Numbered from the stretch's first letter, positions 7,682 through 30,521 are shown. The stretch: DNA of 64,000 bases from Patescibacteria group bacterium (GCA_016926555.1 JAFGOI010000008.1:91316-155315); one strand, 5' to 3'. Notes: generated by a model not told the origin, from the sequence alone. A program made the numbers and translations.

Positions 7682-7714
7682 AGTTAGGGCAGGCGACCTT
7701 AATTGCCTATATTG

Positions 7715-7747
7715 AGTATGAATTGCACTAGTTATAAAGTCAAGAAA
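7715..7747 (-). promoter_or_regulatory. Conserved promoter-like element, copy 2 (TTGACT variant)
   Basis: agtatgaa-N16-gtcaagaaa with the same 24-nt offset, immediately upstream of the pilin start at 7681. Confidence 0.5.
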
Positions 7748-7761
7748 TAACACCAAGCGCA

Positions 7762-8667
7762 TTAGTCCGCTATGAAAAAGCTATAATCCATAACATCTGG
7801 CATATACGGACGGGATTTGTATACCGACATAATCTTAACCACTCTTTGTTCTGACTCCTCTACTAAATTACCTACCGCAGTTATTTTATAACCCTGCTCT
7901 GGAAGATCACCCACAGAAGGATACACACCAAAATTGGCGCTATTATACATAGACCTTATCCTCAAACCGAATTTTCTGGACGGATTAATCTCCGAGAGAT
8001 CAATTTCGGCACACCAATTAAAACCATCTTTCGCTTCCGCGTTAGCTTGTACAAATCCCCGCATCGACTCAAGTGGGTCATAAAACGCAATAGGGTAGTA
8101 ACCGCCTTTACTTACCATCCCAGCGTCATCATACGCTATATAATATAATGCTGTCTTATCATTATCCCAGCATACATTTATTTTATCGTCTGTATATACA
8201 CCGTTTGAGTCATATAGGGATATTTCCTTTAGCTGACCTGATGTAAGCGCAAATCTGTAATGATCCCCTGAACTTTTACTACTGGAGTTGTATTGAAACT
8301 TCTCTACGGTTACAACAGCTTCAGCTGAAATCTTATCGTAGCCAAGTGGCGGATAATCTACTATACATCCTTGAATCCCTTCTTCATATCTCAAGTTAAT
8401 CAACTCACAGTTTGTTTTATATCTATCGGGATCGGTCACGTCAGAAAGAGCCTCTAGTCTGCAATCACCAGCATTCAAATATCTTTCTATACCTCCTTCT
8501 ACAACAGCTGACAATCTCGCAGCCGTATCAGTGCGAGTCACTCTAGCTGATACAGCCAAACTTCGCGTCGCTATAGATAATCCAATAGTTAGAGCTATAA
8601 CAACAACTACAACTACTCCTAAAAGTACTTGCCCAGATTTATTACGCTTTTTATTTGCAATGTTCAC
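7762..8667 (-). CDS. PilX-like minor pilin/pilus assembly protein (cassette copy 1)
   Basis: N-terminus KSGQVLLGVVVVVVIALTIGLSIATRSLAVSARVTRTDTAARLSAVVEGGIERYL fits the PilX_N-type pattern (QxG, hydrophobic helix, AE-G). Paralog of the 11749..12657 product. Confidence 0.5.
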   Translation of the reverse strand: MNIANKKRNKSGQVLLGVVVVVVIALTIGLSIATRSLAVSARVTRTDTAARLSAVVEGGIERYLNAGDCRLEALSDVTDPDRYKTNCELINLRYEEGIQGCIVDYPPLGYDKISAEAVVTVEKFQYNSSSKSSGDHYRFALTSGQLKEISLYDSNGVYTDDKINVCWDNDKTALYYIAYDDAGMVSKGGYYPIAFYDPLESMRGFVQANAEAKDGFNWCAEIDLSEINPSRKFGLRIRSMYNSANFGVYPSVGDLPEQGYKITAVGNLVEESEQRVVKIMSVYKSRPYMPDVMDYSFFIAD

Positions 8668-15978: not shown

Positions 15979-16407
15979 TTAACCGACAAATGATTTTATT
16001 TCGTCCAGAATTTTATCAGGAGTGATCTCGGATTTAATAAGATAACCAGACGCACCCAATTTGAAAGCTTCATCAATAATATGTTCGCTGTTAAGATTGG
16101 TGAGAACAATAACTGGCCCTTTCTTAATATCCTTCGTATCTTTAATCTCTTTTAGAATTCTAATTCCGTCTTTAACAGGCAGGATCACATCAAGTAGCAG
16201 GAGATCCCATACCTCATTTTGAATCATTTCAAGACCAATGTTGCCATCCGAAGCCTGTAGTACTTCGTAACCTGCATCCATCAATATCTCAGCATAAAGT
16301 AAGCGTATATCGTGCTCATCCTCAACTATAAGAATAGTCTTCTTCGGCGGATTAAGTGTCACCATACTAGTTATAATAGTAACACATTTAGTAGGGGAGT
16401 TTGTCAA
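15979..16407 (-). CDS. Single-domain response regulator (CheY-like receiver only)
   Basis: ILIVEDEHDIRLLYAEIL...LLLLDVILP...LTNL...GYLIKS. 142 aa, no output domain. Confidence 0.85.
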   Translation of the reverse strand: MTNSPTKCVTIITSMVTLNPPKKTILIVEDEHDIRLLYAEILMDAGYEVLQASDGNIGLEMIQNEVWDLLLLDVILPVKDGIRILKEIKDTKDIKKGPVIVLTNLNSEHIIDEAFKLGASGYLIKSEITPDKILDEIKSFVG

Positions 16408-16421
16408 TAGTATCTTTTGTA

Positions 16422-16811
16422 CTACTTTAAAACCCGTTTCACTTCGTTTAAGATCTTATCCGGAGTAATATCCGATTTTACGATGTATCCGGTTGCACCT
16501 AGCTTATACGCCTCATCTGGCACGTGATCACTCTTGAGATTGGTGAGCAGAATTATGGGACCTTTTTGTAAGCATTCCGAATCCCTAAGATCCTTCAGTA
16601 TCGCCATCCCATCTTTCTCGGGTAATATTACATCCAATAACAGAACGTCCCAGTTTTCGTTTTGGATTTTCTCTTTTCCCTCATTTCCATTTACTGCCTG
16701 GATTACGATGTAACCTGCATCAGTTAGGATTTCTGCGTAGAGTAGGCGAATGTCTTTTTCGTCTTCTACAAGAAGTATTGCACGCTTTTTATTATCCTTG
16801 GATCCGATCAT
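16422..16811 (-). CDS. Single-domain response regulator (CheY-like), tandem paralog
   Basis: ILLVEDEKDIRLLYAEILTDAGY...LLLDVILPEKDG...LTNL...GYIVKS. 129 aa. Confidence 0.85.
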   Translation of the reverse strand: MIGSKDNKKRAILLVEDEKDIRLLYAEILTDAGYIVIQAVNGNEGKEKIQNENWDVLLLDVILPEKDGMAILKDLRDSECLQKGPIILLTNLKSDHVPDEAYKLGATGYIVKSDITPDKILNEVKRVLK

Positions 16812-16878: not shown

Positions 16879-19341
16879 CTATATCCGACGTACAATACTT
16901 CTTTTCAAATCTAACTCTATAACTTCGTTATCTTTAAAAACCTTTGTTGCGATTTTCGTCCCTATGACACAAGGTATATTAAGCTCTCTTGATATAATCG
17001 CTGCGTGACAGGTCATACCTCCCTCATCTGTTACAATTGCTGCGGCTCTTCTCATTGCAGGAGAATATTGCGGTGTAGTCATAGTTGCTACTAAAACATC
17101 TCCCTCCTGAACTTTACTCATTTCTTTATGCGATCTTAATACTTTGGCTGTCCCTTTTAATCTATCAACATTACCAGAAGACACGGTCAATCCTTGTACA
17201 CTATGTACTGAACCCAAATCCGGTCTTAGCTCTTCGGTTAGAGCAATCACATCCTCAGGATCTTCGATAATCTCATATGTACCATTTACATAGTATAGAA
17301 TGTACGGATTGTCTATCCTTCTACTATAGATCTCCAACATCCTATGAGAATCGTCTATATTCTGTTTCAGCTCTTCAAACGAAAGATACTTAAATACATC
17401 TTCCGAAACATTCGTTTTTTCAGCTAAAACACTAAAAACCCTGTGCATAGCAATATGAGACTTATTGGTTGCCTCCTTTCTCTCATCCGACATCCGAGAA
17501 AGCGTGTGCACATATCCAATCTTTCTTAAATAATGCCCATCAAGGTTATACTTTGTTTTAATATCCGAGTGCAACTGTTTCGTATCATCTTCAAACCTAG
17601 ATAACTCTTCATATCTTTCCGTTAGTTCTTTCTTACTTTTTTCTAAATATTTACATATCTCCGCAATATAGTACTCCCTATCATACAGGTTGGGTCCATC
17701 ATACCCAAACGGTACCCAATAATACTTTTCAACCAATTGATCTATGGCATCTTGGATCCATCCTGGTAATTTTATAAAGTCAACATTCCTTTTCTTAAAT
17801 ACACTTTTTTGCCTCCCACTTACAATATCTAGACATAATTTAACTACCTGGTATTCTTCATCTAAACTAAACGACTTTTCCGGATTCATACTCATCACCC
17901 TATATTCTTCGGGTTCCATATCGAAACGCATAGACTCCTCCAGCAAATGCTTCCCTAAGGAATCTCCACCAACAAGCCAAGGAATAGAATTAAAACTGTT
18001 GTACTTCTCCCAATTATCCTTGATCTTCCTATATCTATTAATTAATTTGTTAATTGTATATTCACCTAGAGGCTCCTCCATAATCTTTTCCGATATAGAC
18101 ATCAATTTCCGCCCCTGTTCAAGTTGAGTATTATAGATTTTTGGTAGATACAATGGATCCTCAATATAAAGTTTCTTAAAGTGCTCTTCCATTAGTTTCC
18201 ACTCATTCTCAACTACAAAAGACGTTAAATCACCGTTGGGTTCAAATAATGTCCAAGCCTGTGGTAATCGAGTACCATGAAGTTCTTCAGTTACAGGGTG
18301 TGTTCTACTTGTATAATTCCACATACATGATACTAATTTAAGCTTTCTTGCCCTTAACATCCTGTATTTGTTGTCAGAATATTCAAAAACGTCTTTCTTG
18401 AGTGTTGTAATTGGCCGATTCTGCAAAATATATAACTTGTCATTTGCATAACACCATTCAACATCACAGGGAAACCTTGATATGCTTTCGATTTTCATAA
18501 CCTTATCTGCCAAGCATAATATTCTCTTATCATCAAGTTTTTGTTCTATTCCCTCTTCAAGGCTAATATCTTTAGCAATACATCCGCTTTCATCACAAAA
18601 CGTTGCCTCACTTTGATTATTAATCTGTTTAGAAAGTATTAGTTTTGTTTCCTTATCTACCACATAGCTATCTGGATGAATTTGCCCAGAAACAAGTTTC
18701 TCGCCCAAGCCATAACATGCTTCGATAAGAATATGATTTGTATTTTCCGTAATCGGATGTACACTAAAACACACTCCGGAAACCTCACTACTAACCATAC
18801 GTTGAACAACTACAGCAACCCCTATATCGGCCGAGTGAAACCCGTTTTCTACACGATAATACAAAGCTTTCGGTGAGTACAAAGACATCCAGCACGATTT
18901 GATACTCTCCACTAGATTATCCTTTGGTACACCTAGATACGTTTCTAGTTGACCTGCCCAAGCATAGTTCTTTCCATCTTCAACAGTTGCACTTGATCTA
19001 ACAGCAACATACCTACAATCAAGTTTATCGAAAGATTCCTCAATGCTCTCAATTATATATTCTGGAATCGTAACATCCTTAATTCTATTTGATATATTCT
19101 CCGACGCTCTCTCAAGATTACTTATATCTTGGGTATCAAGCGTACTTATTTGCGTATCTATTTCTAACATTAATTCTGGATTTAACACAATCTCCCTAAA
19201 AATACCCGTACTCACTATAAAACCCGGCGGAACCGGCACACCCTGTTTAATGAGATCTCCTAGGAAAGCGCCTTTTCCACCAACTAAATGAACATCTTTC
19301 CTAGAGACATTTTTCAAATTTATTATTGACTTATTAGACAT
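16879..19341 (-). CDS. PEP-utilising enzyme family phosphotransferase: PPDK_N-type ATP-grasp N-terminus plus C-terminal mobile phosphohistidine domain (rifampicin-phosphotransferase-like domain order; not a canonical PpsA)
   Basis: N-terminus VHLVGGKGAFLGDLIKQGVPVPPGFIVST. The C-terminal ~70 aa GGMTCHAAIISRELNIPCVIG is a swivel His domain. No PEP/pyruvate-binding TIM-barrel domain follows it. Confidence 0.7.
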   Translation of the reverse strand: MSNKSIINLKNVSRKDVHLVGGKGAFLGDLIKQGVPVPPGFIVSTGIFREIVLNPELMLEIDTQISTLDTQDISNLERASENISNRIKDVTIPEYIIESIEESFDKLDCRYVAVRSSATVEDGKNYAWAGQLETYLGVPKDNLVESIKSCWMSLYSPKALYYRVENGFHSADIGVAVVVQRMVSSEVSGVCFSVHPITENTNHILIEACYGLGEKLVSGQIHPDSYVVDKETKLILSKQINNQSEATFCDESGCIAKDISLEEGIEQKLDDKRILCLADKVMKIESISRFPCDVEWCYANDKLYILQNRPITTLKKDVFEYSDNKYRMLRARKLKLVSCMWNYTSRTHPVTEELHGTRLPQAWTLFEPNGDLTSFVVENEWKLMEEHFKKLYIEDPLYLPKIYNTQLEQGRKLMSISEKIMEEPLGEYTINKLINRYRKIKDNWEKYNSFNSIPWLVGGDSLGKHLLEESMRFDMEPEEYRVMSMNPEKSFSLDEEYQVVKLCLDIVSGRQKSVFKKRNVDFIKLPGWIQDAIDQLVEKYYWVPFGYDGPNLYDREYYIAEICKYLEKSKKELTERYEELSRFEDDTKQLHSDIKTKYNLDGHYLRKIGYVHTLSRMSDERKEATNKSHIAMHRVFSVLAEKTNVSEDVFKYLSFEELKQNIDDSHRMLEIYSRRIDNPYILYYVNGTYEIIEDPEDVIALTEELRPDLGSVHSVQGLTVSSGNVDRLKGTAKVLRSHKEMSKVQEGDVLVATMTTPQYSPAMRRAAAIVTDEGGMTCHAAIISRELNIPCVIGTKIATKVFKDNEVIELDLKRSIVRRI

Positions 19342-19496
19342 ACTCTAGCATTATAGAATTCTGGCAGAATTATAACACGCGGCGACAATATTTATAACTT
19401 GTAGTAATAAAATTAATGTTTTAAAAAGTTGTTTCATCGGTTTTGTCACTGGTTAAATTGACACCATAACAATAAATTCGTATCATACAAATCACC

Positions 19497-20714
19497 ATGG
19501 AAACTTTAGAGGAACTAGGTTTAATATATAACTGGGATAAAAAAAGGGTTATTAATAACAAAAAAATTCTGGATACTTCCCTTAGAGACGGCCTACAAGA
19601 TCCCTCTATAAGACAACCTAGTCTTGAAGAAAAAATAAAATTAATAGACTTAATGGATTCAGTTGGAGTGGATGCTGCAGATATCGGATTTCCAGTAAAT
19701 TCGAAGTCACACAAAAATGAAGTTATCGAAACCGCAAAACATATAAAGGAAAAAAATCTTGGGATTGAAGTATGCGTATTAGCACGCACGCAAAAAAAAG
19801 ATATTGAAGCCGCAATAGAGGTGTCACAGAAAGCTCAGATACCGGTCGAAGTAATAACTATAGTGGGAAGTAGTAAAGTAAGACACTTCGTAGAGAACTG
19901 GAATCTTGACCAAGTCAAAAAATGGATAAAAGAATGTATTACTCTGGCACTTAAAAACAATCTTGAAGTAAATTTTCTAACTGAAGATGGTACACGAACG
20001 GAACCAGGAATGCTTACAGATCTGTATAAATACGCAATTGACTTAGGCGCTTCCAAAGTTACGATTGCCGACACGGTCGGTTTTGCTACTCCTTATGCAA
20101 CAAAAAAGATAATCGAACTATTTAAAAAGGACATACTTAAGAAAAACAAAGATATCACATTAGATTGGCATGGACATAACGACAGAGATTTCGGCACCAT
20201 CAATGCTTTAGAAGCTTTTGAATCAGGTGCAGACAGGGCACACGTATGTATCTTAGGAATAGGAGAGAGAGCGGGTAACACGGCCATGGAACCGCTGCTA
20301 GTTAATATGAAAATGATGGGAATGGCTAACGGTAAAAACCTAAGGGAACTCCCACAACTCTCAATGTACGCCTCTAATATCTTTAATATCAATATACCCC
20401 AAAATATGCCCATCGTTGGGGAATACGTACACACAACGTCCGTTGGAATACATGCTTCCGCAATATTAAAAGCTAGAAATATGTACAGGGAGGACCTCGC
20501 TAATACAGTCTACTCTGGAGTCAATCCGCAGTACGTGGGACTAAAAACTGAGATATTTGTAGGGCCTTTGAGTGGAAGGGCTAATGTTATATATGTACTA
20601 AGAAAACACGGAATTGAGCCAACAGAAGAAAAAATAGAAAAAGTATTGAAACACGCTTCATCTAAAAATGTGGTTCTAAAAGACGATGAGGTCCTTCTTA
20701 TAACCAAGGACTAG
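19497..20714 (+). CDS. HMGL-like/DRE-TIM metallolyase family protein (2-isopropylmalate/homocitrate/citramalate synthase-like, no LeuA regulatory domain)
   Basis: LDTSLRDGLQD near the N-terminus and DWHGHNDRDFGTINALEAFESGA (HxH metal motif). 405 aa. Confidence 0.65.
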   Translation: METLEELGLIYNWDKKRVINNKKILDTSLRDGLQDPSIRQPSLEEKIKLIDLMDSVGVDAADIGFPVNSKSHKNEVIETAKHIKEKNLGIEVCVLARTQKKDIEAAIEVSQKAQIPVEVITIVGSSKVRHFVENWNLDQVKKWIKECITLALKNNLEVNFLTEDGTRTEPGMLTDLYKYAIDLGASKVTIADTVGFATPYATKKIIELFKKDILKKNKDITLDWHGHNDRDFGTINALEAFESGADRAHVCILGIGERAGNTAMEPLLVNMKMMGMANGKNLRELPQLSMYASNIFNINIPQNMPIVGEYVHTTSVGIHASAILKARNMYREDLANTVYSGVNPQYVGLKTEIFVGPLSGRANVIYVLRKHGIEPTEEKIEKVLKHASSKNVVLKDDEVLLITKD

Positions 20715-20724
20715 TGTCATAATG

Positions 20725-22635
20725 TTATAAATACCTTCTAGGATCCGTTATTTTACCTTCTATTACTGAAGCCGCGACTGTCAACGGAGAAGCAAGGAAA
20801 ATCTTACCTTCTTTCGAGCCCATTCGTCCCATAAAATTTCTATTTGATGAAGATATCATCACCCCGCTACTACTCAATAAACCTTTGTGTTTGCCATAAC
20901 AAGGACCACAAGTAGAAGATTCAATATTTGCACCTGCATCATAGAACACCTTTAAAATGCCTTCACTTAGTAATCTCTGATATATCTTCCTTGAAGCGGG
21001 GATTACAACAAAATCCACGCTGTCATGTATTTTTCTACCCTTTATGATTTTCGCCGCCTCGACAAAGTCCTCATACTTCCCATTTGTACAGGCACCCAAA
21101 AACCCGTTTGTTAACTTAAGATCATACACCGGAGGAAAGTTTGGATCATCCTGTTTTTGGCTTTCCAGCATATAATCCTCTATTTTGGAAATAAACGTAA
21201 CATTATCTGGTTTATGCGGAAAAGCGACACACGGTTCTAATGAGGACAGATCAACGTGTATAACACTGCTATAAACGCATTTCTCATCGAGGTTAGCCTC
21301 CTTATATGGATACTGAGCCCTATCTACTATAAAACTATCCGTCACAGAGTCATATTCGAAAATCGCCCCCCGCGCACTCGTTTCAACTACCATATTAGCA
21401 ATAGTGGTTCTCGCATCAATTGATAATGTCTTTAAAGCAGAGCCTCCAAACTCCATGATCTTCTTCGACGCGCCATGTACACCTACAATACTCAAGATAT
21501 ACAGAATTATATCTTTAGCATATACACCCTTCTGAAGCTTATTAGAAAAATCGACTCTTATGGTTTCGGGTACGACAAAATCATGTAAATGCCCTGTCGC
21601 CATAACATATGCAGCTTCAGTTGTACCAATACCAAATGATAATGAGTTTAACGCACCGCCCGTACAAGTATGAGAATCTGTACCTACAACAAAAGATCCC
21701 GGTACGATATAACCATCTTCCGCCAAAACCACATGTTCTATTCCATCCCCCGGTTTGTAGAACTTTAAATTCTGTTTTCTTGAAAAATCTCGCATAATTT
21801 CAACACCATCTGAACTTGTTACACTTGACGGGGGAGAATCGTGATCTACGATAAAAAATACTTTTGACTTATCATAAACAACAGGAGCGGTTTTATGAGC
21901 CCGATAAACATCAGTAAAATTATCTTCATATTCCTTAATGACGGCAGGACCAAAGGCATCATTAACAAACAATACATCCACTGGAATATTGTCTAATCTC
22001 TCTCCTGCATATACATCCCGATGTATATGCGAAGATATTATTCTTTCAACGAGTGTCTGGCTTTTATTGTTCTTTGCTTTGTACTTTGAATAATGATCTA
22101 ATCTTTTCCTTCTCTTTGATACACTATCCACTAAAAAATCTTTTACAAGATTTGCTTTCCCTCCCATAGAAAAAATCTTTTTATCTGTAGTATCTATATT
22201 AAAGTCGTGAATTATATCATTATGAATAAGTTGGCTATCCTCTAAATTAAGCACAACTTCATCATTCATGTTGAAAATTCTGGTATTATCAAATCGAATG
22301 AGTATCAATCCGTTATTTAGCGCATTTCTATAAAATATTTCCGAAAAAGACTGCGCTATTACGACCCTCACATTGTTATGCTGCAATGCGTAGATTGCTT
22401 GCTCTCTTGACGAACCAGCTCCAAAGTTTTTGCCGGCAATTATTAAATTATGCTCGATCATACCACAACGAGTTATAAAATCGGGATCGTATACAGAAAA
22501 AGCATACTTTCCAAAAAATGATCTATCTGTTGACTCCTGCAAAGTCCATCCAGGAATAATATCGTCAGTATTAATATGATCGAAAAATATAGAGGACACA
22601 GTTAACCTGAAGGTATTTCGCATATACAAACCCAT
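20725..22635 (-). CDS. Fused 3-isopropylmalate dehydratase-like protein with permuted order: LeuD-like swivel domain N-terminal, LeuC-like aconitase catalytic domains C-terminal
   Basis: N-terminal HINTDDIIPG...GKNFGAGSSREQAIYAL...VIAQSFSEIFYRNALNNGL (LeuD signature). Then VGTDSHTCTGG, GACTNGKYED, STCGPCYG and SSSNRNFMGRMG (aconitase-family Fe-S ligand and signature motifs). Confidence 0.75.
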   Translation of the reverse strand: MGLYMRNTFRLTVSSIFFDHINTDDIIPGWTLQESTDRSFFGKYAFSVYDPDFITRCGMIEHNLIIAGKNFGAGSSREQAIYALQHNNVRVVIAQSFSEIFYRNALNNGLILIRFDNTRIFNMNDEVVLNLEDSQLIHNDIIHDFNIDTTDKKIFSMGGKANLVKDFLVDSVSKRRKRLDHYSKYKAKNNKSQTLVERIISSHIHRDVYAGERLDNIPVDVLFVNDAFGPAVIKEYEDNFTDVYRAHKTAPVVYDKSKVFFIVDHDSPPSSVTSSDGVEIMRDFSRKQNLKFYKPGDGIEHVVLAEDGYIVPGSFVVGTDSHTCTGGALNSLSFGIGTTEAAYVMATGHLHDFVVPETIRVDFSNKLQKGVYAKDIILYILSIVGVHGASKKIMEFGGSALKTLSIDARTTIANMVVETSARGAIFEYDSVTDSFIVDRAQYPYKEANLDEKCVYSSVIHVDLSSLEPCVAFPHKPDNVTFISKIEDYMLESQKQDDPNFPPVYDLKLTNGFLGACTNGKYEDFVEAAKIIKGRKIHDSVDFVVIPASRKIYQRLLSEGILKVFYDAGANIESSTCGPCYGKHKGLLSSSGVMISSSNRNFMGRMGSKEGKIFLASPLTVAASVIEGKITDPRRYL

Positions 22636-22684: not shown

Positions 22685-23110
22685 TTATGCTACTGATTTA
22701 ACTTCCGTCTTGCCGAAAGCCTTAAGTGCTTCCTCAGCGCACTTGACATCGTCATTTACATCAAGTGATCCGCCAACACCCACACCACCAACTACCTTAT
22801 CACCATCTTTTATAGGAAGTCCACCGGCTAAGGTAATTAACTCATTGCTAAAGGCCGCATTTAAACCAAAATACGGCTTTCCTTCTTCAGTATATGGAGC
22901 AATATCACCGGACGGGAGCCCTAACAGGGCAGAAGTATACGCTTTCATACTAGCAAATTTAGGACTTATATAGAAAGCGCCATCCATTCTGGACATAGCG
23001 ACAAGTGTACCGTGCTCATCAACAACTACCGTGGTAACTTTAATTCCTAATTCTTTTGCTTTCTTTTCTGAGAGTTCTAAAGCTTCTTTTGATTTTGAAA
23101 GATTCAGCAT
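22685..23110 (-). CDS. GlcG/HbpS-like DUF336 family protein
   Basis: TTVVVDEHGTLVAMSRMDGA...KAYTSALLGL...GGLPIKDGDKVVGGVGVGGS. 141 aa, no signal peptide. Confidence 0.7.
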   Translation of the reverse strand: MLNLSKSKEALELSEKKAKELGIKVTTVVVDEHGTLVAMSRMDGAFYISPKFASMKAYTSALLGLPSGDIAPYTEEGKPYFGLNAAFSNELITLAGGLPIKDGDKVVGGVGVGGSLDVNDDVKCAEEALKAFGKTEVKSVA

Positions 23111-24630: not shown

Positions 24631-25590
24631 TCAGCCAAAATTCAAGGACAAATAAGCCCTAATCAACACCTTACCCCACAACAACGCAACAACACTTCCA
24701 ATAATAAGAAACGGACCAAACGCGATAGTATCTTTCATCTTCTTTTTACCCAAAAGCATCAGGACAGCACTAAATCCTGCCCCAAACAAAAATCCCAGAA
24801 AAACCGCCAGAATATTCTGCAGAATATCCTCAAAATCAAAAAACATGAAAGATCTAGTCCTAAAGAAAGCGGAATCAATAGGAAACCCGTTAAAAAGTCC
24901 TATCAATAAAGCCAATTTCACATCGCCGCCACCCATACCTTTACCTCTAGTAATATATACCAAAAACTGAAAAAATCCCGTTATCAAAACCGAACTCACA
25001 AGTAGTATTGTAATATTTTTAAAAACATGTCTTAAAGGTATTTGCATATATCCCCCTTGAATCAAAAACTGACCTATTTCATCTGCAACCAATTTATTGT
25101 GTACTCCCATTAGAGAATATACTTGGCTGATTAGAATAAACGAAGCTATAAACACAATCGCGGAATATACTATTACGTTTGGAATCAACTGAAACTTAAG
25201 ATCCGTTAAAAACAGAACTATAAAGAAACAAAATACTATAAAAAAGTAAAAGAACAATATTGTGTTCTCAGGTCGTATATACGCATAAAAAAACTGCGCT
25301 CTATAGGCAGAATATGCTAAAGCTAACCCCGTTATAGCTTCAGAAAACGGGTATAAATATGATAGCTTAGTTTTACAGTTTGTACATTTTCCTTTCTGGA
25401 ATATAAAAGAAAATAGGGGAACTAAGTGCCTTGGTTTGAGTAGCATTCCACAGCTCTCGCATTTTGAGCGAGACAGGAAAATCTTCTCATTCCTGACTAT
25501 TCTATCCGACACTAAATTTAAAAAAGAACCTATAAAGGTACCGACATAAAAAAGTAACAAATAATATAATGCCATTAGAAAATGATACAA
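24631..25590 (-). CDS. pilD: Prepilin peptidase (PilD, peptidase A24)
   Basis: N-terminal zinc-binding domain GSFLNLVSDR...CESCG...CTNCKTKL and aspartyl protease motif GGGDVKLALLIG. Polytopic. Confidence 0.85.
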   Translation of the reverse strand: MYHFLMALYYLLLFYVGTFIGSFLNLVSDRIVRNEKIFLSRSKCESCGMLLKPRHLVPLFSFIFQKGKCTNCKTKLSYLYPFSEAITGLALAYSAYRAQFFYAYIRPENTILFFYFFIVFCFFIVLFLTDLKFQLIPNVIVYSAIVFIASFILISQVYSLMGVHNKLVADEIGQFLIQGGYMQIPLRHVFKNITILLVSSVLITGFFQFLVYITRGKGMGGGDVKLALLIGLFNGFPIDSAFFRTRSFMFFDFEDILQNILAVFLGFLFGAGFSAVLMLLGKKKMKDTIAFGPFLIIGSVVALLWGKVLIRAYLSLNFG

Positions 25591-25816
25591 GGTTCAAAAA
25601 GATTTGCATAGGGAACTCGGGACCGTTATATATAGATTTGTAAGCTAAATAGATCGAACTCGAGAAGGGACTCCAAATAGAATATCTGTATTGATTCATC
25701 TGATAAATCATTCATATAAACATAAATGCCCGAGTCATCCCGGGCATTTAGTAATCACTTTCGATTAGCTGCCACAATTGCACCCTTTAGATGTATCACA
25801 TTAAAGAAACTTAAAA

Positions 25817-25843
25817 GCCCCCAAACAGAGTAGGGGGCTTTTT
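25817..25843. terminator. Bidirectional intrinsic terminator downstream of pilA (GCCCCC-N10-GGGGGC with flanking T/A runs)
   Basis: aaaaGCCCCCaaacagagtaGGGGGCttttt. U-run on both strands. A second hairpin TGCCCGagtcatcCGGGCA lies at 25726..25747. Confidence 0.6.
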
Positions 25844-25896
25844 AGTAATTTGCAATTCAGACAGACAACTGCAAATCTGAGCATCGAAGATACAGA

Positions 25897-26394
25897 TTAT
25901 GTTGTTCCAACACCAAGCAAATAAAGGTCGGTTCCAACCTCATAAACACCTGCTTCATTTCCGCCATCAGTACCCATTGACGTCTGGTTATCCGGATGCT
26001 CCAGAACACAGTCAAACTCAAAGTTTTGGCCATCGGACGCAAATGCATATTCAAGCGGAGCAACATTTGTAGGATCAATTGGAAGTGCAGGAACATATTG
26101 AGCTAAAGAACCTGTTCCTAAGGCAACCCATCCGGATCCGTCAACTGCCTGTGTGCCCGTTGTGCTGGTACAAGTAGCACAACCAGTTGTATCAGCCAAT
26201 GTAAGTTGTCCTTCTGTAATAGCGATATTAATTGCGTCTCTTAAATTTGTCATATCTCTCATTCTTGTTGAATCTCTGCTTTTCTGCATTATTGACTGCG
26301 GATTAATTGCTATCATCAAACCCCCGGCTAAAATAGCTATGATTGCTATAACTACTAGTAGTTCAACTAGCGTAAAACCTTCTTTTCTTCCCAT
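25897..26394 (-). CDS. pilA: Type IV pilin, candidate major pilin (PilA)
   Basis: RKEGFTLVELLVVIAIIAILAGGL. Adjacent to pilC/pilT/pilB. Strong SD (GAGAGGGGGTGA) and a dedicated terminator. Confidence 0.75.
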   Translation of the reverse strand: MGRKEGFTLVELLVVIAIIAILAGGLMIAINPQSIMQKSRDSTRMRDMTNLRDAINIAITEGQLTLADTTGCATCTSTTGTQAVDGSGWVALGTGSLAQYVPALPIDPTNVAPLEYAFASDGQNFEFDCVLEHPDNQTSMGTDGGNEAGVYEVGTDLYLLGVGTT

Positions 26395-26494
26395 TCCCTG
26401 TCACCCCCTCTCGAAAATTTTTATCTTTTATGACTTGAATCCCTGGCCAGCGAGTGACTCAAATCCGATAAAAAATAAATTTCATACATTAATA

Positions 26495-27697
26495 CTACAA
26501 TGCATTTGTGATCTTGTATATCGGTGTAATTATAGAAATAATCAGAAATCCTACCATTCCCCCTAACAGCACTAGTATTATCGGCTCAAGTGCTGAAGAT
26601 AATCCCTTGACTAAATGGTCTACTTCCCCAGCATAATAGGACCCCACACGAGACAGAACCTGATCCATCTGCCCAGTTTCTTCTCCAACACTTGCCATTT
26701 GCCCAATCAGAGGGGGAAACCTTTCATTCTGCTTAAAATACCCGGAAAGAGAATTGCCTTTTTCAACCTGCTTAACCGCTTCCAATGTGGCTTCTCTTAA
26801 ACCCCTATGACGAACAACATCGGCTACAATCTCAAGCGCCTCAACAATAGGTATAGCGGCAGATATCAGTAAGGAGAGAGTTCTCGCGAAAGATACCATA
26901 TCTTTTTGTTTATTTATTTTCCCAAAAACAGGGGCACGAAACACTATCTCAGTTACCATATCCCTTCCTGTCGGGGTTTTTAAAAATAGTCTCAACCCGA
27001 TAATCCCACCAACAACCAGTATGAACATAATCAAAATGTTATTCACCATAAAATCCGACAGATTTATCATCAGTGTAGTAATCATGGGCAGGGGAACGTT
27101 AAGACTGCGATACATATCGGCAAGTTTAGGGACCACAAATACCATCAATATGATAAACACACCTACCATAGCGATCATTACGATAGCGGGGTAGATCAGA
27201 GCTCCTTTGAATTTAGACGATAACTCTCTTTCTTCCTCTAATGTTTCAGCTAATCTGTTTAGGATTTCGTCAAGTTTACCCGATGTTTCTCCTGCCCCTA
27301 CAAGGGAAACATATGTTGGAGAGAAAACATTGGGATATCGTGCCAGGGCTGACGACAACGAGGCTCCTCCCTCAACATATCGCAGGACATCCTGAATGAT
27401 CCTCTGAAAAGCTTTATTTGAACTCTGAGAACCCAAAACTTCCAGAGCACGCGCCACAGGCAACCCTGCTGAGATCATCGTGGAAAATTGGCGAGTAAAC
27501 GCAACAACATCACTAGTAGGGACTCCTCTCAAATGAATTACCTGATCTATAATACCCTCTCTTTTCTCTGAAATGCTAACAACGAATAAACCCTGGTTTC
27601 TAAGAAGACTTGTGGCTATTTCCATGGAACGGGCATCAACTGTCCCTGTTCTAGAATCACCTGTTCTGTCTTTGGCTGTGTAAGAAAATATGCTCAT
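26495..27697 (-). CDS. pilC: Type IV pilus platform protein PilC (GspF family)
   Basis: Two T2SSF-like repeats (FTRQFSTMISAGLPVARALEVL...; FARTLSLLISAAIPIVEALEIV) and three TM regions. 400 aa. Confidence 0.85.
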   Translation of the reverse strand: MSIFSYTAKDRTGDSRTGTVDARSMEIATSLLRNQGLFVVSISEKREGIIDQVIHLRGVPTSDVVAFTRQFSTMISAGLPVARALEVLGSQSSNKAFQRIIQDVLRYVEGGASLSSALARYPNVFSPTYVSLVGAGETSGKLDEILNRLAETLEEERELSSKFKGALIYPAIVMIAMVGVFIILMVFVVPKLADMYRSLNVPLPMITTLMINLSDFMVNNILIMFILVVGGIIGLRLFLKTPTGRDMVTEIVFRAPVFGKINKQKDMVSFARTLSLLISAAIPIVEALEIVADVVRHRGLREATLEAVKQVEKGNSLSGYFKQNERFPPLIGQMASVGEETGQMDQVLSRVGSYYAGEVDHLVKGLSSALEPIILVLLGGMVGFLIISIITPIYKITNAL

Positions 27698-28761
27698 TTA
27701 ACACCTTTTAATAATCTTTTTAAGTCCTCAGGATAGGGAGAACAGTTAAACGCATCAACTTCGGTTATTAATTTTGACACAACAAGATTCGCTAAGCTTC
27801 TCTCCAAACTGAACATACCTACATTACTACTAGTATTTAATATATTTCTCAGCATATGGGCTTTGCCTTCTCTTATGGTATTTCTTACAGCATCCGTACC
27901 CAACAGTAGTTCTACTGCCGGTACCATTCCAAGTTTTTCAGATGGTAAAAGCCTTTGAGCAATTACCACTTCTATAACCTGAGCAAGCTGTAGTCTGATC
28001 TCGGATCTTTTCGCTTCAGGAAATGCGGATATGATTCTGTCAATGGTCTGTGTGGCAGAATTAGTATGCAAAGTAGCAAATACTAAATGCCCGGTCTCCG
28101 CGATTTGCAACGCAGCTGACATAGTCTCAATATCTCTCATTTCTCCAACTAACACAACATTAGGATCCTGCCTCAAAACCGACTTAAGAGCACTATCCCA
28201 ACTATGAGTATCTAAATACATTTCTCTTTGCTCAATCATAGACTTCTTATTGAAAAACATATATTCAATAGGATCTTCAATAGTTAATATGTGCACTGAT
28301 CTTTGATCATTAATTCGGTCAATCATTGCGGCTATGGTGGTAGATTTTCCTTGCCCTGTAGGACCAACAACCAGCACTAAACCTTGACTTAAATTGCACA
28401 GATGCATAATAGGATCGGGAAGATTAAGCTCCTCTAGAGTGGGTATAACCAAAGGTATTGTCCTTAAACTCAATGAAGGGTAACCTTTTTGATAAAACGC
28501 ATTAACCCTAAAACGAGCTTTTTGGCCTAAAGACACGGAAAAATCGAGTTCTTTGTTAACCTCAAAAATTTCTCGCTGTTGGTCATCCATAACCTGAGAA
28601 AGCACACCTTCAATATCAGTCTCGCTTATCATATCGTATTCAATTATTGGCTGTAGGACAGTATTCACACGAATGTAGATATTTGACCCCACAGTAATAT
28701 GCAAGTCGGACGCTTCTTTTTCTAATATTTCTTCTAAAAGCTTTGGAAGATTTACCTTCAT
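27694..28761 (-). CDS. pilT: Twitching motility/retraction ATPase PilT
   Basis: Walker A GLVLVVGPTGQGKSTT, IEDPIEY, and Asp/His boxes typical of PilT. 355 aa. Confidence 0.85.
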   Translation of the reverse strand: MKVNLPKLLEEILEKEASDLHITVGSNIYIRVNTVLQPIIEYDMISETDIEGVLSQVMDDQQREIFEVNKELDFSVSLGQKARFRVNAFYQKGYPSLSLRTIPLVIPTLEELNLPDPIMHLCNLSQGLVLVVGPTGQGKSTTIAAMIDRINDQRSVHILTIEDPIEYMFFNKKSMIEQREMYLDTHSWDSALKSVLRQDPNVVLVGEMRDIETMSAALQIAETGHLVFATLHTNSATQTIDRIISAFPEAKRSEIRLQLAQVIEVVIAQRLLPSEKLGMVPAVELLLGTDAVRNTIREGKAHMLRNILNTSSNVGMFSLERSLANLVVSKLITEVDAFNCSPYPEDLKRLLKGVK

Positions 28762-30521
28762 TTCGCCACCCTCATTACTTCTTCAAGAGTTGTAATGCCC
28801 TCAACAACTCTAAGGTAACCATCTTGTAATAGCGTGATCATACCTTCTTTAACTGCTTGAGATTGGAGTTTACTTGCTACCGAATCTTCTAATGTTATAT
28901 GTGATACCTCATCACTCATGACCAATAATTCAAATATACCGATCCTTCCTTTGTACCCAGTGTTGCCGCACTTTGGACAGCCTTTTGCTCTTGAAAGTTT
29001 AATACCTCCTGCAGATCTAAACTCTTTCACACACTTTGCTACCTCCGGGTCGCGTTTCATTAGAACATCATTAGATTCAATTTCACTTATAACATCTGAA
29101 ATATTCTCCAGAACTTCCTTAGGAGGATCATATCTTTCACGGCAATCTTTACACACTCTTCTTACTAATCTCTGAGCTAAAACTGCGTTTAATGTTGATG
29201 CCAAAAGGAAACTCTCGACTCCCATATCAAGTAGTCGGGGAATAGCTCCCGCAGCAGAATTAGTATGCAGTGTAGATAGTACTAGGTGGCCTGTTAAAGC
29301 AGCATGAACAGCTAGTTCTGCGGTTTCGCCATCTCTAACCTCTCCGACCATGATTATGTTCGGATCTTGTCTCAAAAAAGACCTCAACCCATTCGCAAAA
29401 GTCAGTCCTGCTTGAGGGTTAACCTGCACATGATTAACACCAGGAACACGAATTTCGACAGGATCTTCAATAGTTGTTACATTCACTCTAATAGTATTCA
29501 GCTTGCTTAATGCCGAGGCTAAAGTAACAGTCTTACCGGAACCCGTAGGACCCGTGACAAGTATCATTCCATTTGGCTTGAGCGAAGTCTCCTCAAATCT
29601 TTTAAGTGTTAAACCTCTCATACCGAGGTCTTTATATGTAAACACTTGGCCTTCTTCTTTCAACAGCCTCATAACTACTTTTTCGCCATTTATGGTCGGC
29701 AGAGTAGAAACCCTCAAATCTGTCTGTGTATTACCAACTTCGACCTTAAATCTTCCATCCTGCGGAATACGTTTTTCGTCTATCTTCATCTTTGCCAAAA
29801 TCTTTATTCTAGCCACAATAGAATCATGCATTTCCTTAGGTAATTTCCTTTTTTCCTCCAATATTCCATCTATTCTGTATCTTAATCGGGACTCTTCCTC
29901 CCCCGGTTCAATGTGAATGTCTGAAGCACCTGTCTTAACGGCAGTTTCCAGCATCATTCCTACAATTCTCGCAATAGGGGCATCCCGTATTACTGCTTGA
30001 CCAATTTCTTCGTTACTTTCCTCAATCTTGAGTGTTGTCTGTGCGATTTCCTCCATAGCTGCCGTTATTTCCTCACCCAGTTCCGTACCTTTCTGCTCTT
30101 CAAGTACTTTCTCGATATTCTTCTTTGTGGTTACAAAGGGAAGTACTTTATAACCCGTTTTTCGCTCAATAAAATCAATAGTCTGGAGATCAAGAGGGTC
30201 TATCATCGCAAGGGACAGATTATTTCCTTCTAAAGCAAAAGGAACAACATCATATTTTCGGGCTACAGCCAACGGCACTATATCCAACAAGGAATTATCC
30301 ACCTGAAGAGGATTAATGGTAACATACTCAATTCCATATACTTCTCCAAATGCTTCCGCGAGGGCTTCGTCACTTACGTATCCTCTTTCTTTAATTATTT
30401 TTTGGAGGGATTTACCTGTGTTAACATTCTCAAATTTAACAGCAGAAAGCTGATCTGAATCTAACAGCTTCTTTTCATATAATACGTCTGCAACTGTCTG
30501 TGAAGAACTTGTTTTGGCCAT
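28758..30521 (-). CDS. pilB: Type IV pilus assembly ATPase PilB (GspE family)
   Basis: N-terminal GSPII_E_N-like domain, Walker A LVTGPTGSGKTVTL, and tetracysteine CKDC...CPKCG. Confidence 0.85.
   Translation of the reverse strand: MAKTSSSQTVADVLYEKKLLDSDQLSAVKFENVNTGKSLQKIIKERGYVSDEALAEAFGEVYGIEYVTINPLQVDNSLLDIVPLAVARKYDVVPFALEGNNLSLAMIDPLDLQTIDFIERKTGYKVLPFVTTKKNIEKVLEEQKGTELGEEITAAMEEIAQTTLKIEESNEEIGQAVIRDAPIARIVGMMLETAVKTGASDIHIEPGEEESRLRYRIDGILEEKRKLPKEMHDSIVARIKILAKMKIDEKRIPQDGRFKVEVGNTQTDLRVSTLPTINGEKVVMRLLKEEGQVFTYKDLGMRGLTLKRFEETSLKPNGMILVTGPTGSGKTVTLASALSKLNTIRVNVTTIEDPVEIRVPGVNHVQVNPQAGLTFANGLRSFLRQDPNIIMVGEVRDGETAELAVHAALTGHLVLSTLHTNSAAGAIPRLLDMGVESFLLASTLNAVLAQRLVRRVCKDCRERYDPPKEVLENISDVISEIESNDVLMKRDPEVAKCVKEFRSAGGIKLSRAKGCPKCGNTGYKGRIGIFELLVMSDEVSHITLEDSVASKLQSQAVKEGMITLLQDGYLRVVEGITTLEEVMRVAK

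Follow-up and report, generated by a model that had tools for sequence, protein, structure and literature searches.

A swivel-first LeuD-LeuC fusion and a short DRE-TIM synthase as candidate enzymes of 2-oxoacid elongation in Patescibacteria

We analysed a 64-kb stretch of Patescibacteria DNA (the window, taken at its full length) and found that it encodes, side by side, a 405-aa DRE-TIM synthase and a 636-aa isomerase in which a LeuD-like swivel domain precedes a LeuC/HacA-like catalytic core. With a probability of about 0.55, the two proteins are the first two enzymes of a LeuA/LeuCD-type (alkylmalate-type) 2-oxoacid elongation. The analysis shows the order of the domains, catalytic residues that are intact in the two proteins, a predicted fold resembling AcnB, and sister fusions that serve CPR leucine operons as isopropylmalate isomerase. 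The locus contains the following features:

19497..20714, plus strand: 405-aa DRE-TIM Claisen-condensing synthase (class-3 "LeuA family protein"), TIM barrel plus HCS_D2 subdomain, without a regulatory domain
20725-22635, minus strand: 636-aa swivel-first isomerase fusion, a single ORF
22141..22614, minus strand: swivel domain of the fusion (aconitase domain 4, LeuD-like), aa ~8-165, by LEUD_arch and Foldseek
22060..22140, minus strand: inter-domain linker of the fusion, aa ~166-192, between the NCBIfam LeuD (17-165) and LeuC (193-633) matches
20725..22059, minus strand: catalytic core of the fusion (aconitase domains 1-2-3, LeuC/HacA-like) including the stop codon, by PRK00402 and hacA_fam
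22685..23110, minus strand: 141-aa HbpS-like/GlcG (PF03928) protein, Pfam 98 bits
23182..24612, plus strand: 476-aa cytoplasmic GAF-HisKA-HATPase histidine kinase, by Pfam domains
15979-16407 and 16422-16811, minus strand: two single-domain response regulators, by Pfam Response_reg

The synthase and fusion ORFs are convergent, with 10 bp between their stop codons, as an earlier reading of the sequence alone (the sequence-only reading) had placed them. The HbpS-like gene and the fusion share a strand and probably an operon, with the HbpS-like gene 49 bp upstream. The GAF kinase gene is divergent from the HbpS-like gene, and a promoter-like site at 23176-23148 (minus strand) matches at 10 of 12 positions, which is suggestive only. 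The two response regulators are possible partners of the kinase and may belong to the same module. A tblastn search of the 64-kb window detected no leuB, which the sequence-only reading had also failed to see, and no true LeuA was found within it. Homologs of Iso_dh, ilv and aminotransferase genes were found neither in the window (tblastn) nor among the neighbouring genes (Pfam scans).

Domain order and predicted structure of the fusion

Two Pfam domains were recognised in the fusion, Aconitase_C (aa 64-117) and Aconitase (aa 198-627). Residues 17-165 matched the NCBIfam model LEUD_arch with 113 bits (cutoff 109), residues 193-633 matched PRK00402 with 432 bits (cutoff 385), and the hacA_fam model gave 415 bits (cutoff 386), while the scores lay below the LeuC/LeuD equivalog cutoffs (TIGR02083, 369 against 611; TIGR00170, 209 against 560; TIGR02084, 77 against 246). 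These positions bear out the earlier claim of a LeuD-then-LeuC order, the reverse of the usual one. When the fusion was used as a query against genome contigs, 69 of 80 non-CPR loci had leuC-leuD order; the matches in that search were LeuC/LeuD loci at only 32-40% identity with no CPR relatives among them, and the apparent matches to residues 16-636 were unions of leuC-leuD gene-pair matches in the same 69 of 80 loci.

All the LeuD and LeuC motifs quoted in the sequence-only reading are present, including NTDDIIPG, NFGAGSSREQA, GTDSHT, CTNG...CGPC and SNRNFMGR. Among 64 family members, S75-S76-R77-E78, D264-H265, H301, D320-S321-H322, C516, C576, C579, R599 and R604 are invariant. C516, C576 and C579 are the [4Fe-4S] ligands of the core, and the Cys motifs align with those of 4kp2, 4kp1 and mitochondrial aconitase. 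Within the swivel domain lie IIPGWTLQES, the loop for substrate recognition, and the motif GAGSSRE; the domain can be aligned to HacB 2pkp, LeuD 1v7l and LeuD 3vba. The Cys ligands, the D-H, D-S-H and N-R-N-F-x-G-R motifs, the GSSRE swivel motif and scores above the family thresholds place the fusion in the IPMI/HACN subfamily. The Pfam E-values of the locus proteins (1e-98 and 1e-55), together with 91 full-length homolog clusters of the same domain order, far exclude chance.

The M. jannaschii LeuCD and HacAB enzymes (MJ0499/MJ1277 and MJ1003/MJ1271; PDB 4kp1, 4kp2, 3vba, 2pkp) have the same two modules, with 34-35% identity in the core, and the same Fe-S ligands and DH, DSH, GSSRE and NRNF.GR motifs. 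Unlike these enzymes, whose two subunits stand in leuC-leuD order, the fusion joins both subunits in a single chain that starts with the small one, and its recognition loop (WTLQES) matches neither that of LeuD (YLVY, 3vba) nor that of HacB (YLRT, 2pkp). It also differs from LeuC/LeuD sensu stricto in being without a LeuB partner, in its sub-cutoff equivalog scores and in carrying 24 clade-specific substitutions.

The AlphaFold model of the fusion was confident (pLDDT 92, pTM 0.91). Its N-terminal ~165 aa were modelled as a swivel domain (Foldseek TMt 0.84-0.87 against the LeuD/HacB structures 2pkp, 1v7l and 3vba), in line with the placement expected from the sequence, and the core reached TMt 0.90-0.93 against HacA/LeuC, 4kp2 (HacA) and 4kp1 (LeuC) being its best PDB matches by both sequence and fold. 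The linker was modelled as a helix end that passes into coil (pLDDT 81-85). The best full-length Foldseek match was E. coli AcnB 1l5j (TMq 0.80, 724 aligned columns), which upholds the earlier comparison with the AcnB permutation: both proteins have the domain order 4-1-2-3 on one chain. However, the fusion is only 19% identical to AcnB, begins its swivel at about residue 8 without the N-terminal HEAT-like domain 5, and scored 92 bits with the acnB model TIGR00117 (cutoff 1287). The 4-1-2-3 order is recognised in the literature as an architecture class of AcnB and AcnX type I (PMC8184944). Because the sequence affinity of the fusion is to IPMI/HACN, its permutation most likely arose independently of AcnB. 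It would be a second, probably independent, AcnB-type permutation, located in the IPMI/HACN part of the aconitase superfamily. The PRK07229 and TIGR01342 "putative aconitate hydratase" proteins (~650 aa) also join short LeuC-type and LeuD-type modules in a single chain, but in the opposite order (1-2-3-4), and the core of the fusion matched these models with 395 and 289 bits, below their cutoffs of 612 and 719.

The fusion family and CPR leucine loci

Among the 120 best-scoring homolog clusters of the fusion, drawn from NCBI, JGI, ENA and Logan assemblies, 91 were full-length with both domains in the same order and a single frame, and wherever the source names them they are mostly Patescibacteria. 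Oscillospiraceae also carry swivel-first fusions, which are independent of these. The sole ground for regarding the fusion as an assembly or sequencing artefact joining leuD and leuC is that bacteria usually have split genes in leuC-leuD order, as in the 69 of 80 non-CPR loci. The 91 independent clusters with one single-frame architecture, the Oscillospiraceae fusions and the structured linker in the model speak against it; the clusters and the model refute a frameshift or assembly error, and the chance of an artefact is practically nil. Neither of the two outcomes that the sequence-only reading had named as refuting it, an N-terminal part that does not model as a swivel domain and separate frames exposed by a sequencing error, was observed.

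In each of four other CPR loci, a sister fusion adjoins a true LeuB, and in three of them LeuA as well. One locus (L088) has LeuA (721 bits), the fusion and LeuB (468 bits); in two others (L089 and L003) the fusion stands between a short LeuA (606-612 bits, cutoff 532) and LeuB (470 bits, cutoff 353). In the fourth (L173), the fusion and LeuB (366 bits, cutoff 353) are ~1.3 kb apart and no synthase is close by; the DNA of this locus is C-depleted with many in-frame stops, and its genes were read after stop repair. The association with both leuA and leuB thus applies to the sister fusions P0005, P0008 and P0012, and P0089 has LeuB only. Because CitMHS and a "399-aa" Iso_dh occur in L173, we had suspected that the third CPR fusion clade (P0084-P0101) might be an aconitase working alongside a citrate transporter and IDH. 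This reading was rejected, since the dehydrogenase, after removal of a spurious N-terminal extension, is the LeuB mentioned above. Because the fusion adjoins LeuB in four loci, and LeuA as well in three, the swivel-first family is the standard CPR isopropylmalate isomerase and not a one-off. The sequence-only reading had missed this standard form, the Oscillospiraceae fusions and the separate clade of the synthase described below.

The fusion of the window belongs to a sister clade of the leucine-locus fusions. The fusions paired with a class-3 synthase, namely that of the window and P0002, P0003 and P0010, group together in a single clade. Relative to the leucine clade, the class-3 fusions are changed at 24 positions that are conserved elsewhere; these lie near catalytic motifs, and the changes often go toward polar residues (T266D, V267S, M584K and Y351H). 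These polar substitutions point to a poor fit to an isopropyl group.

The permutation is conserved across a whole bacterial radiation and in Oscillospiraceae, and informs how the swivel can be tethered at either end. The fusions are now annotated as "large subunit", which conceals their small-subunit content. Patescibacteria are usually described as lacking amino-acid biosynthesis; some of them keep complete ilv-leu operons built around the swivel-first fusion. In the literature searched, neither a LeuD-LeuC fusion nor CPR citramalate or leucine enzymes were described.

The synthase clade and its gene neighbourhood

Pfam detected HMGL-like at aa 23-289 (185 bits) and HCS_D2 at aa 306-386 of the synthase but no LeuA_dimer regulatory domain, and the protein ends at aa 405. 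It is a short DRE-TIM synthase with RDGLQ and HGH motifs and without the allosteric domain, as described earlier. R30, D31, E163, H225, H227 and H319 do not vary across the family alignment and correspond to the catalytic residues of 3eeg, 3rmj and 6ktq. With LeuA, CimA, HCS, NifV and Re-citrate synthase (Re-CS) it has in common the DRE-TIM barrel, the post-barrel subdomain and the R-D, E, H-x-H and G-I-H set, and it differs from them in RDGLQ (not R[DE]GEQ), a conserved N-terminal L-I-x-x-W, WHGHND and the missing regulatory domain.

The synthase reached no NCBIfam equivalog (best score 232 bits against a LeuA cutoff of 517), whereas CPR class-1/2 synthases scored 606-721 bits with the LeuA model (cutoff 532). 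It was below the homocitrate synthase cutoffs (nifV, 205 against 463; LysS, 196 against 414). CimA was likewise discounted, with 140 bits for TIGR00977 (cutoff 450), 26% identity to Heliomicrobium CimA and a position outside the CimA branch. In the neighbour-joining tree, the synthase fell in a separate clade with 100% bootstrap, outside the LeuA, CimA, HCS/NifV and Re-citrate synthase clades. The protein is thus not a truncated LeuA. LeuA, NifV and one type of Re-citrate synthase are all equally far from it (27-31% identity), so the substrate is not fixed by sequence alone.

This equidistance leaves room for a tricarboxylate branch, in which a Re-citrate/homocitrate-type synthase would condense oxaloacetate or 2-oxoglutarate with acetyl-CoA and the fusion would act as aconitase/homoaconitase, feeding glutamate or 2-oxoadipate-type chemistry. 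The synthase is as near to NifV and to the Heliomicrobium/Thermoanaerobacter-type Re-citrate synthases as to LeuA (96-137 bits), and has WHGHND and LGIGER[AT]GN in common with the C. kluyveri-type Re-CS. The class-3 fusions have DHDSPP, resembling DHNVPP of M. jannaschii HacA, and their residue 584 is Lys, compared with Gln in HacA and Met or Tyr in IPMIs; the top PDB sequence matches of the fusion are HacA 4kp2 and HacB 2pkp, by small margins. However, the synthase lies outside the Re-CS, HCS and NifV clades. Its pocket positions are hydrophobic (F64, L95, I120 and L161). Where the S. acidocaldarius HCS 6ktq has the Arg of VRFTAED and the His of EAGHP, the synthase has Asn (N159) and Phe (F64); we take this Arg and His to be the ligands of the C5-carboxylate (the distal carboxylate of 2-oxoglutarate), as in the T. 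thermophilus HCS structure. Moreover, the swivel loop has no Arg (WTLQES compared with YLRT in HacB), no isocitrate/homoisocitrate dehydrogenase was found in the 64-kb window, and the other fusion clades are paired with LeuB, not IDH. We therefore consider a tricarboxylate branch quite improbable.

A Re-citrate synthase identity for the synthase itself was unsupported, given its separate clade. Identity was 27-29% to the HM1_2993/Teth514 type and 25% to the D. mccartyi enzyme; the C. kluyveri type was absent from the six best matches of the synthase and was 24-25% identical to its close relatives P0122 and P0124. The reference sequences (C. kluyveri, S. aciditrophicus, D. mccartyi and H. modesticaldum) were transcribed from a PDF supplement.

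Across CPR genomes, a class-3 synthase and the fusion are adjacent or at most two genes apart in six of nine loci (one of them inferred), in three gene orders. An HbpS-like gene adjoins the synthase or the fusion in seven of the eight CPR loci examined. A GAF kinase of the same type is encoded at most three genes away from the synthase in L001, L085, L086, L170, L171 and L172, and response regulators are directly 3' of the kinase in the last four of these. The HbpS-like protein and the GAF kinase, which the sequence-only reading did not mention, are thus the most consistent neighbours of the synthase. Three class-3 loci have no fusion, so the synthase is not strictly dependent on a nearby one: L170 and the P0127 contig have a tight synthase-ThrC-like-RidA operon instead, and L172, which encodes the closest relative of the synthase (62% identity), lacks ThrC-like/RidA genes, and its synthase and HbpS-like genes have no fusion between them. 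Within 10 kb of any of the eight class-3 loci examined, no Iso_dh, ilv or aminotransferase gene was found, whereas the leucine-type CPR loci always have an adjacent LeuB. These results indicate a module of HbpS-like protein, synthase, fusion and GAF histidine kinase that recurs in CPR and in which the fusion is optional.

The tighter association of the synthase with the HbpS-like protein and GAF kinase (7/8) than with the fusion (6/9), together with the fusion-less L172 and the ThrC-like/RidA operons, would also fit two separate pathways, in which the HbpS-like protein (and ThrC-like/RidA in relatives) would be the partner of the synthase in making another product and the fusion is simply the LeuCD of the lineage in a conserved synteny block. 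We regard this as unlikely: the fusion stays beside the synthase in three gene orders although the synthases are only 41-62% identical across genomes, the paired fusions form their own clade with common substitutions, and a lone LeuCD without LeuA or LeuB has no obvious use.

Outside CPR, one locus (L098) combines a synthase of the same clade with LeuC at equivalog level (647 bits, cutoff 611), LeuB (414 bits, cutoff 393) and a LeuD-like gene, and another (L101) has a same-clade synthase in the row synthase-LeuC-LeuD-Iso_dh. The contexts of the broader clade are heterogeneous and include M20 peptidase, amidohydrolase, thiolase and glycyl radical enzyme genes. The metagenome-contig matches listed for the synthase alignment were 35-43% identical, in contexts without CPR-specific neighbours, and the contexts of high-GC loci were read by tblastn. 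A YrdC/Sua5-like identity for the unannotated ORFs beside class-3 synthases was discarded, as the matches were sub-threshold (E 0.036 and 0.12) and the ORFs gave no mutual BLAST matches. The clade spans many phyla, is an uncharacterised part of the LeuA/HCS/Re-CS family, and in CPR is locked to the HbpS-like protein and a two-component system; it is a tractable biochemical target.

Proposed reactions and regulation

In the alkylmalate-type elongation that we favour, the synthase would condense a 2-oxoacid, presumably with acetyl-CoA as donor, to a 2-alkylmalate. The 2-oxoacid probably has a small non-charged, putatively alkyl side chain, as in pyruvate, 2-oxobutyrate or 2-oxoisovalerate. The [4Fe-4S] fusion may then dehydrate and rehydrate the 2-alkylmalate to the 3-alkylmalate, its N-terminal swivel domain closing over the C-terminal core in an AcnB-like manner, if both proteins act on one pathway. 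A third step could come from a dehydrogenase of the LeuB type, encoded outside the window or supplied by a host. Chain elongation had already been proposed in the sequence-only reading; it is made plausible by fusion relatives between LeuA and LeuB and by a synthase relative with LeuC, LeuD-like and LeuB genes, and for the clade of the window it is a putative role.

In weighing the elongation reading, we counted in its favour the scores above the thresholds of the LeuC/HacA and LeuD families, the sister fusions beside LeuB, the hydrophobic pocket of the synthase, the genomic coupling and the non-CPR synthase relatives beside LeuC/LeuD/LeuB. On the other side we counted the lack of a nearby Iso_dh, the fusion-less class-3 loci, the polar substitutions of the class-3 fusions, the equidistance of the synthase from several families and the heterogeneous contexts. 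A reduced genome with no LeuB or ilv genes in the window could also suggest a decaying leucine-operon remnant without current function, but neither ORF is disrupted and all catalytic residues are conserved, the pair is retained in several divergent genomes and the fusion model is confident, so that a remnant is very improbable.

It is a rather unlikely idea that the HbpS-like/synthase/fusion/GAF-kinase block is a self-contained CPR system making a non-proteinogenic dicarboxylate as end product or signal. The kinase or the HbpS-like protein would then sense this product or shield the Fe-S enzyme. If true, the block would be a new metabolic/signalling module of episymbiotic bacteria and not a piece of amino-acid biosynthesis. 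Citramalate, citraconate, methylmalate, or ethylmalate from ThrC/RidA-generated 2-oxobutyrate are the dicarboxylates that we would name for it.

HbpS-SenS-SenR is a three-component redox/iron sensor of Streptomyces. The window resembles it in that an HbpS-family gene lies beside, and divergent from, a histidine kinase gene with response regulators nearby. The window differs in that its HbpS-like protein has no obvious signal peptide and the kinase is of a soluble GAF type. We speculate that the HbpS-like protein and GAF kinase exert redox/iron or metabolite control over the oxygen-labile Fe-S enzyme.

Domain order and fold of the fusion protein

The sequence-only reading described a LeuD-LeuC fusion with the swivel domain first, convergent with a short DRE-TIM synthase. 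We confirmed this observation, and all of the quoted motifs are present. The two open reading frames are convergent, with stop codons 10 bp apart:

19497-20714, forward strand: synthase, 405 aa
20725-22635, reverse strand: fusion, 636 aa

Fusion residues ~17-165 form a LeuD-type swivel domain (NCBIfam LEUD_arch, 113 bits, cutoff 109; Pfam Aconitase_C), and residues about 193-634 form a LeuC/HacA-type core (PRK00402, 432 bits, cutoff 385; hacA_fam, 415, cutoff 386; Pfam Aconitase, 328 bits). Among the 120 best homolog clusters, 91 were 590-673 aa long with Aconitase_C preceding Aconitase and were 44-62% identical to the window's fusion; those named by source were almost all from Patescibacteria, and the next-best matches were unfused LeuC proteins of ~446 aa. 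Alongside this recurrence, the probability that the fusion is an artefact is negligible.

The AlphaFold2 model of the fusion, built on 64 family members, reached a pLDDT of 92 and a pTM of 0.91, with the inter-domain linker at residues ~166-192. Foldseek comparisons showed that the modelled core matched HacA and LeuC of M. jannaschii (TMt 0.90-0.93) and the N-terminal domain matched LeuD/HacB structures (TMt 0.84-0.87). Over the full length, E. coli AcnB was the best structural match (TMq 0.80, 724 columns), and mitochondrial aconitase aligned to the core only (TMq ~0.6). The swivel-first, AcnB-like architecture is thus borne out by domain order, conservation and structural comparison, although the fusion lacks the HEAT domain of AcnB.

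The architectures reported for the aconitase superfamily are 1-2-3-4, 4-1-2-3 (AcnB and AcnX type I) and split, with fungal isopropylmalate isomerase (IPMI) placed under 4-linker-1-2-3 (4-1-2-3) (PMC8184944). The window's fusion belongs to the IPMI/HACN branch and has the 4-1-2-3 order. The placement of the fungal enzyme conflicts with yeast Leu1, in which the LeuC module comes first and LeuD follows.

The swivel-first architecture is not unique to CPR. Gene order in 80 non-CPR loci was leuC-leuD in 69 and D-to-C in 5; a further D-to-C fusion outside CPR was found at locus L120, and an Oscillospiraceae contig (L011) carried two in tandem, each a single ORF:

L011, 10010-11779, forward strand: swivel-first fusion, 589 aa
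L011, 12023-13807, forward strand: swivel-first fusion, 594 aa

The substrate loops of this tandem pair differ (IASQYIILPS and IMPTEYLALGS), and loci L022, L037 and L054 look similar. Literature searches found no description of the D-to-C arrangement of LeuCD.

The fusion family in leucine loci and its sister clade

Relatives of the fusion were found in leucine loci of CPR genomes. In L088, the relative P0005 lies near the end of a classical operon, ilvE-ilvB-ilvN-ilvC-LeuA(498 aa)-ilvA-ilvD-RidA-fusion-Iso_dh; in L089, from the same genome (KatS3mg091), a second fusion, P0008, belongs to a compact short synthase-fusion-Iso_dh module, which recurs in L003/L004 followed by aminotransferases and ilv genes. 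By NCBIfam, the synthases of these loci are true LeuA (721 bits for the full-length form, 606-612 for the short forms, cutoff 532), the short forms being 382-386 aa without a regulatory domain, and the Iso_dh genes are true LeuB (468-471 bits, cutoff 353). In a third fusion clade (P0089, locus L173), LeuB (366 bits, cutoff 353) lies 1.3 kb from the fusion, and no synthase was found near that fusion. Because its relatives sit with true LeuB, and all but the L173 one with LeuA too, the fusion family is predicted to be the isopropylmalate isomerase of CPR, and the fusion to be the normal CPR form of LeuCD. The swivel substrate loop and GSSRE determine specificity (PMC7308503). The loop IIPAWTLQES is kept throughout the fusion family and matches neither YLVY of M. 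jannaschii LeuD nor YLRT of its HacB.

Some Patescibacteria carry complete ilv-leu operons, namely at L088 and L089 (KatS3mg091, GCA_026004435.1) and L003 (GCA_026004455.1), and KatS3mg091 has two LeuA-fusion-LeuB sets, one with full-length LeuA and the other with LeuA lacking the feedback-regulatory domain. The DNA of the whole L173 locus (ENA ERZ925367) is strongly C-depleted (C 2127 vs G 4220), and genes in it that otherwise match intact proteins (96% identity) contain many in-frame stops, as if the assembly input had been damaged or converted from C to T. Several proteins of the P0084-P0101 clade have an odd Trp at conserved Gly positions.

In an NJ tree of fusions, the window's fusion clustered with P0002, P0003 and P0010, all paired with a synthase of the window's type (class 3), and these class-3 fusions were sister to the leucine-operon fusions in what is a rough tree without bootstrap. 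With the fusion of locus L171 included, 24 positions separate class-3 fusions from the leucine clade, where each is at least 90% conserved. Several of the changes flank catalytic motifs: NEVIGP to NDAFGP, DHTVPS to DHDSPP, NCGPC to TCGPC, GKHMG to GKHKG, CGSSRE to [AST]GSSRE, and Y351H; at two of these sites the class-3 residues are nearer M. jannaschii HacA than LeuC. The substitutions hint at altered specificity.

The synthase clade and its neighbours

The synthase consists of an HMGL-like TIM barrel and a post-barrel HCS_D2 subdomain, and Pfam found no LeuA_dimer regulatory domain in its 405 aa. It is only 30% identical to the short (class-2) LeuA of L003, and its best score was 232 bits against LeuA, CimA and HCS models with cutoffs of 414-748 (NCBIfam). 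Compared with the experimentally anchored references of PMC12016533 Table S1, it was 27-31% identical to LeuA, NifV and Re-citrate synthases (Re-CS) of the Heliomicrobium/Thermoanaerobacter type and 25-26% identical to D. mccartyi Re-CS and CimA; the C. kluyveri-type Re-CS was not among its six best reference matches. In an NJ tree of synthases, it grouped with ~410-aa 'LeuA family proteins' of many phyla (100% bootstrap; CPR subclade 88%), apart from the LeuA clade, which held the full-length (class-1) and class-2 CPR synthases at 100%. The family has the signatures L-I-x-x-W (N-terminal), RDGLQ, WHGHND and GIHA[AS]A, and the catalytic residues R30, D31, E163, H225, H227 and H319 are invariant. 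Next to such intact chemistry, the reading of the pair as a decaying remnant is very improbable.

The synthase pocket is hydrophobic (F64, L95, I120, L161), and Asn and Phe stand where the homocitrate synthase structure 6ktq has Arg and His. The roles assigned to these positions follow published LeuA, CimA and HCS structures. A tricarboxylate (Re-citrate or homocitrate) branch has on its side the identities to NifV and Re-CS and the two HacA-like fusion sites, and against it this pocket; we consider it quite unlikely.

We compared nine CPR class-3 loci (the window, L001, L171, L085, L086, L170, L172, the P0127 contig and the P0125/P0003 contig); the pairing of P0125 and P0003 on one contig was inferred solely from their contigs being of the same length, and the other features were scored in eight loci.

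Features of the CPR class-3 synthase loci
Fusion adjacent to the synthase or at most two genes away: 6/9 (one inferred), in three gene orders
HbpS-like (PF03928) gene adjacent: 7/8
GAF-HisKA kinase at most three genes off: 7/8
Iso_dh within 10 kb: 0/8

The window's gene arrangement is reproduced exactly in L171. The closest synthase relative (L172, 62%) has no fusion. Instead of the fusion, L170 and the P0127 contig carry genes for a threonine-synthase-like PLP enzyme (233 bits, cutoff 167) and for RidA (170, cutoff 106) after the synthase. The fusion thus accompanies the synthase often but not always. That synthase and fusion are functionally uncoupled neighbours would suit this optional pairing, and the repeated, rearranged adjacency and the co-clading of paired fusions point the other way; this alternative appears unlikely.

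The HbpS-like gene of the window shares the fusion's strand and lies 49 bp upstream of it. The best promoter-like sites precede the synthase (19458-19486, 11/12 positions) and the HbpS-like gene (23176-23148, 10/12); such sites are overall no more numerous than in shuffled controls. HbpS-SenS-SenR is a sensor of Streptomyces, and the HbpS-like protein with the GAF kinase recalls it; by this analogy one may speculate that control is tied to redox/iron state or a metabolite. The synthase is not a truncated LeuA; it belongs to an uncharacterised clade that is linked to a sensor module.

Several loci have an unannotated ORF of 232-384 aa next to the class-3 synthase:

L001, 13244-13942
L085, 5084-6238
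L086, 9214-10188
L170, 5178-6116
L172, 1848-2909

Two of them gave sub-threshold Sua5/YciO/YrdC matches (E 0.036 and 0.12) around a TSAN/TSMN...G.P motif, and no equivalent was found in the window.

Outside CPR, we sampled 52 loci with usable flanks among the metagenome-scan matches listed, with synthases 35-43% identical to the window's. Among these, LeuC/LeuD-like genes lay within 6 kb in 8-9 and Iso_dh within 6 kb in 3, a thiolase was immediately upstream in 8 and an M20 peptidase downstream in 11, and HbpS-like, ThrC-like and RidA genes were found in none. Locus L101 has the row synthase-LeuC-LeuD-Iso_dh. In L098, where the class-3-like synthase is the only LeuA-like gene, LeuB (414 bits, cutoff 393), LeuC (647, cutoff 611) and a LeuD-like gene are interspersed with CoA-ester enzymes:

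L098, 2488-17505 (metagenome contig): LeuB, LeuC, MarR, thiolase, 3-hydroxyacyl-CoA dehydrogenase/enoyl-CoA hydratase, LeuD-like, synthase, enoyl-CoA hydratase, two 2-hydroxyacyl-CoA dehydratase subunits

Here 2-oxoacid elongation may be coupled to a CoA-dependent reductive branch. Part of the broader clade clearly works with LeuCD/LeuB-type enzymes, and the clade is probably not isofunctional. In L087 (8001-12698, Victivallales), genes for a PFL-like glycyl radical enzyme and its radical-SAM activase come straight after a 39%-identical member. The thiolase immediately upstream in L100, L104, L111, L120, L121, L122 and L136 lies ~1.2-1.5 kb from the synthase, with an aconitase-family gene further upstream in several.

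Proposed function and the surrounding window

We propose, at a probability of roughly 55%, that the two proteins catalyse steps 1 and 2 of an alkylmalate-type 2-oxoacid elongation. The synthase would condense acetyl-CoA with a small uncharged 2-oxoacid to a 2-alkylmalate, which the Fe-S fusion would isomerise to the 3-alkylmalate. Both proteins have the ancestry and the intact chemistry for this reading. Further support comes from their repeated and rearranged adjacency, the common clade of paired fusions, the L098 and L101 contexts, and the hydrophobic pocket with Asn/Phe replacing Arg/His; the lack of a dehydrogenase nearby, the optional fusion and the polar substitutions in the class-3 fusion argue against it. 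The chain-elongation module suggested from sequence stands as plausible and unproven, and this reading needs refining as to the fusion and the synthase. The pair combines a swivel-first IPMI-type enzyme with a new LeuA-superfamily clade, within an incomplete pathway. Databases already list both with uninformative names, and no description of either turned up in literature searches.

Searched by tblastn with LeuB, IlvB/N/C/A/D and aminotransferase queries taken from a related operon, the 64 kb gave no further matches. The other genes scanned were housekeeping genes (DnaB, HisRS, release factor, proteases, type IV pilus genes, integrase, YchF, Fic). Further features are:

16879-19341, reverse strand: PEP-synthase-like protein, 820 aa, directly upstream of the synthase and divergent
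24631-30521: type IV pilus cluster (prepilin peptidase, pilin, PilC-like T2SSF, two T2SSE ATPases)
4678-5682, 7007-7762 and 25897-26394: further N-methyl pilin-like genes
38485-39507, reverse strand: tyrosine recombinase/integrase
49944-50031, reverse strand: tRNA-Leu (CAA), the window's only tRNA, ~10 kb from the integrase gene

In L170, the same pilus genes come after the kinase and response regulators, so the region as a whole forms a synteny block conserved in CPR. The PEP-synthase-like gene is absent from the related class-3 loci. Its product has a PPDK_N ATP-grasp domain (aa 18-317) and a PEP-utilizers mobile His domain (aa 745-813), separated by ~430 residues without domain assignment, and falls below all NCBIfam cutoffs, the models matched including PEP synthase, rifampicin phosphotransferase and PigC/RedH. 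The GC skew of the window changes sign twice, between ~30 and 38 kb and at 52-56 kb, in step with switches in gene strand.
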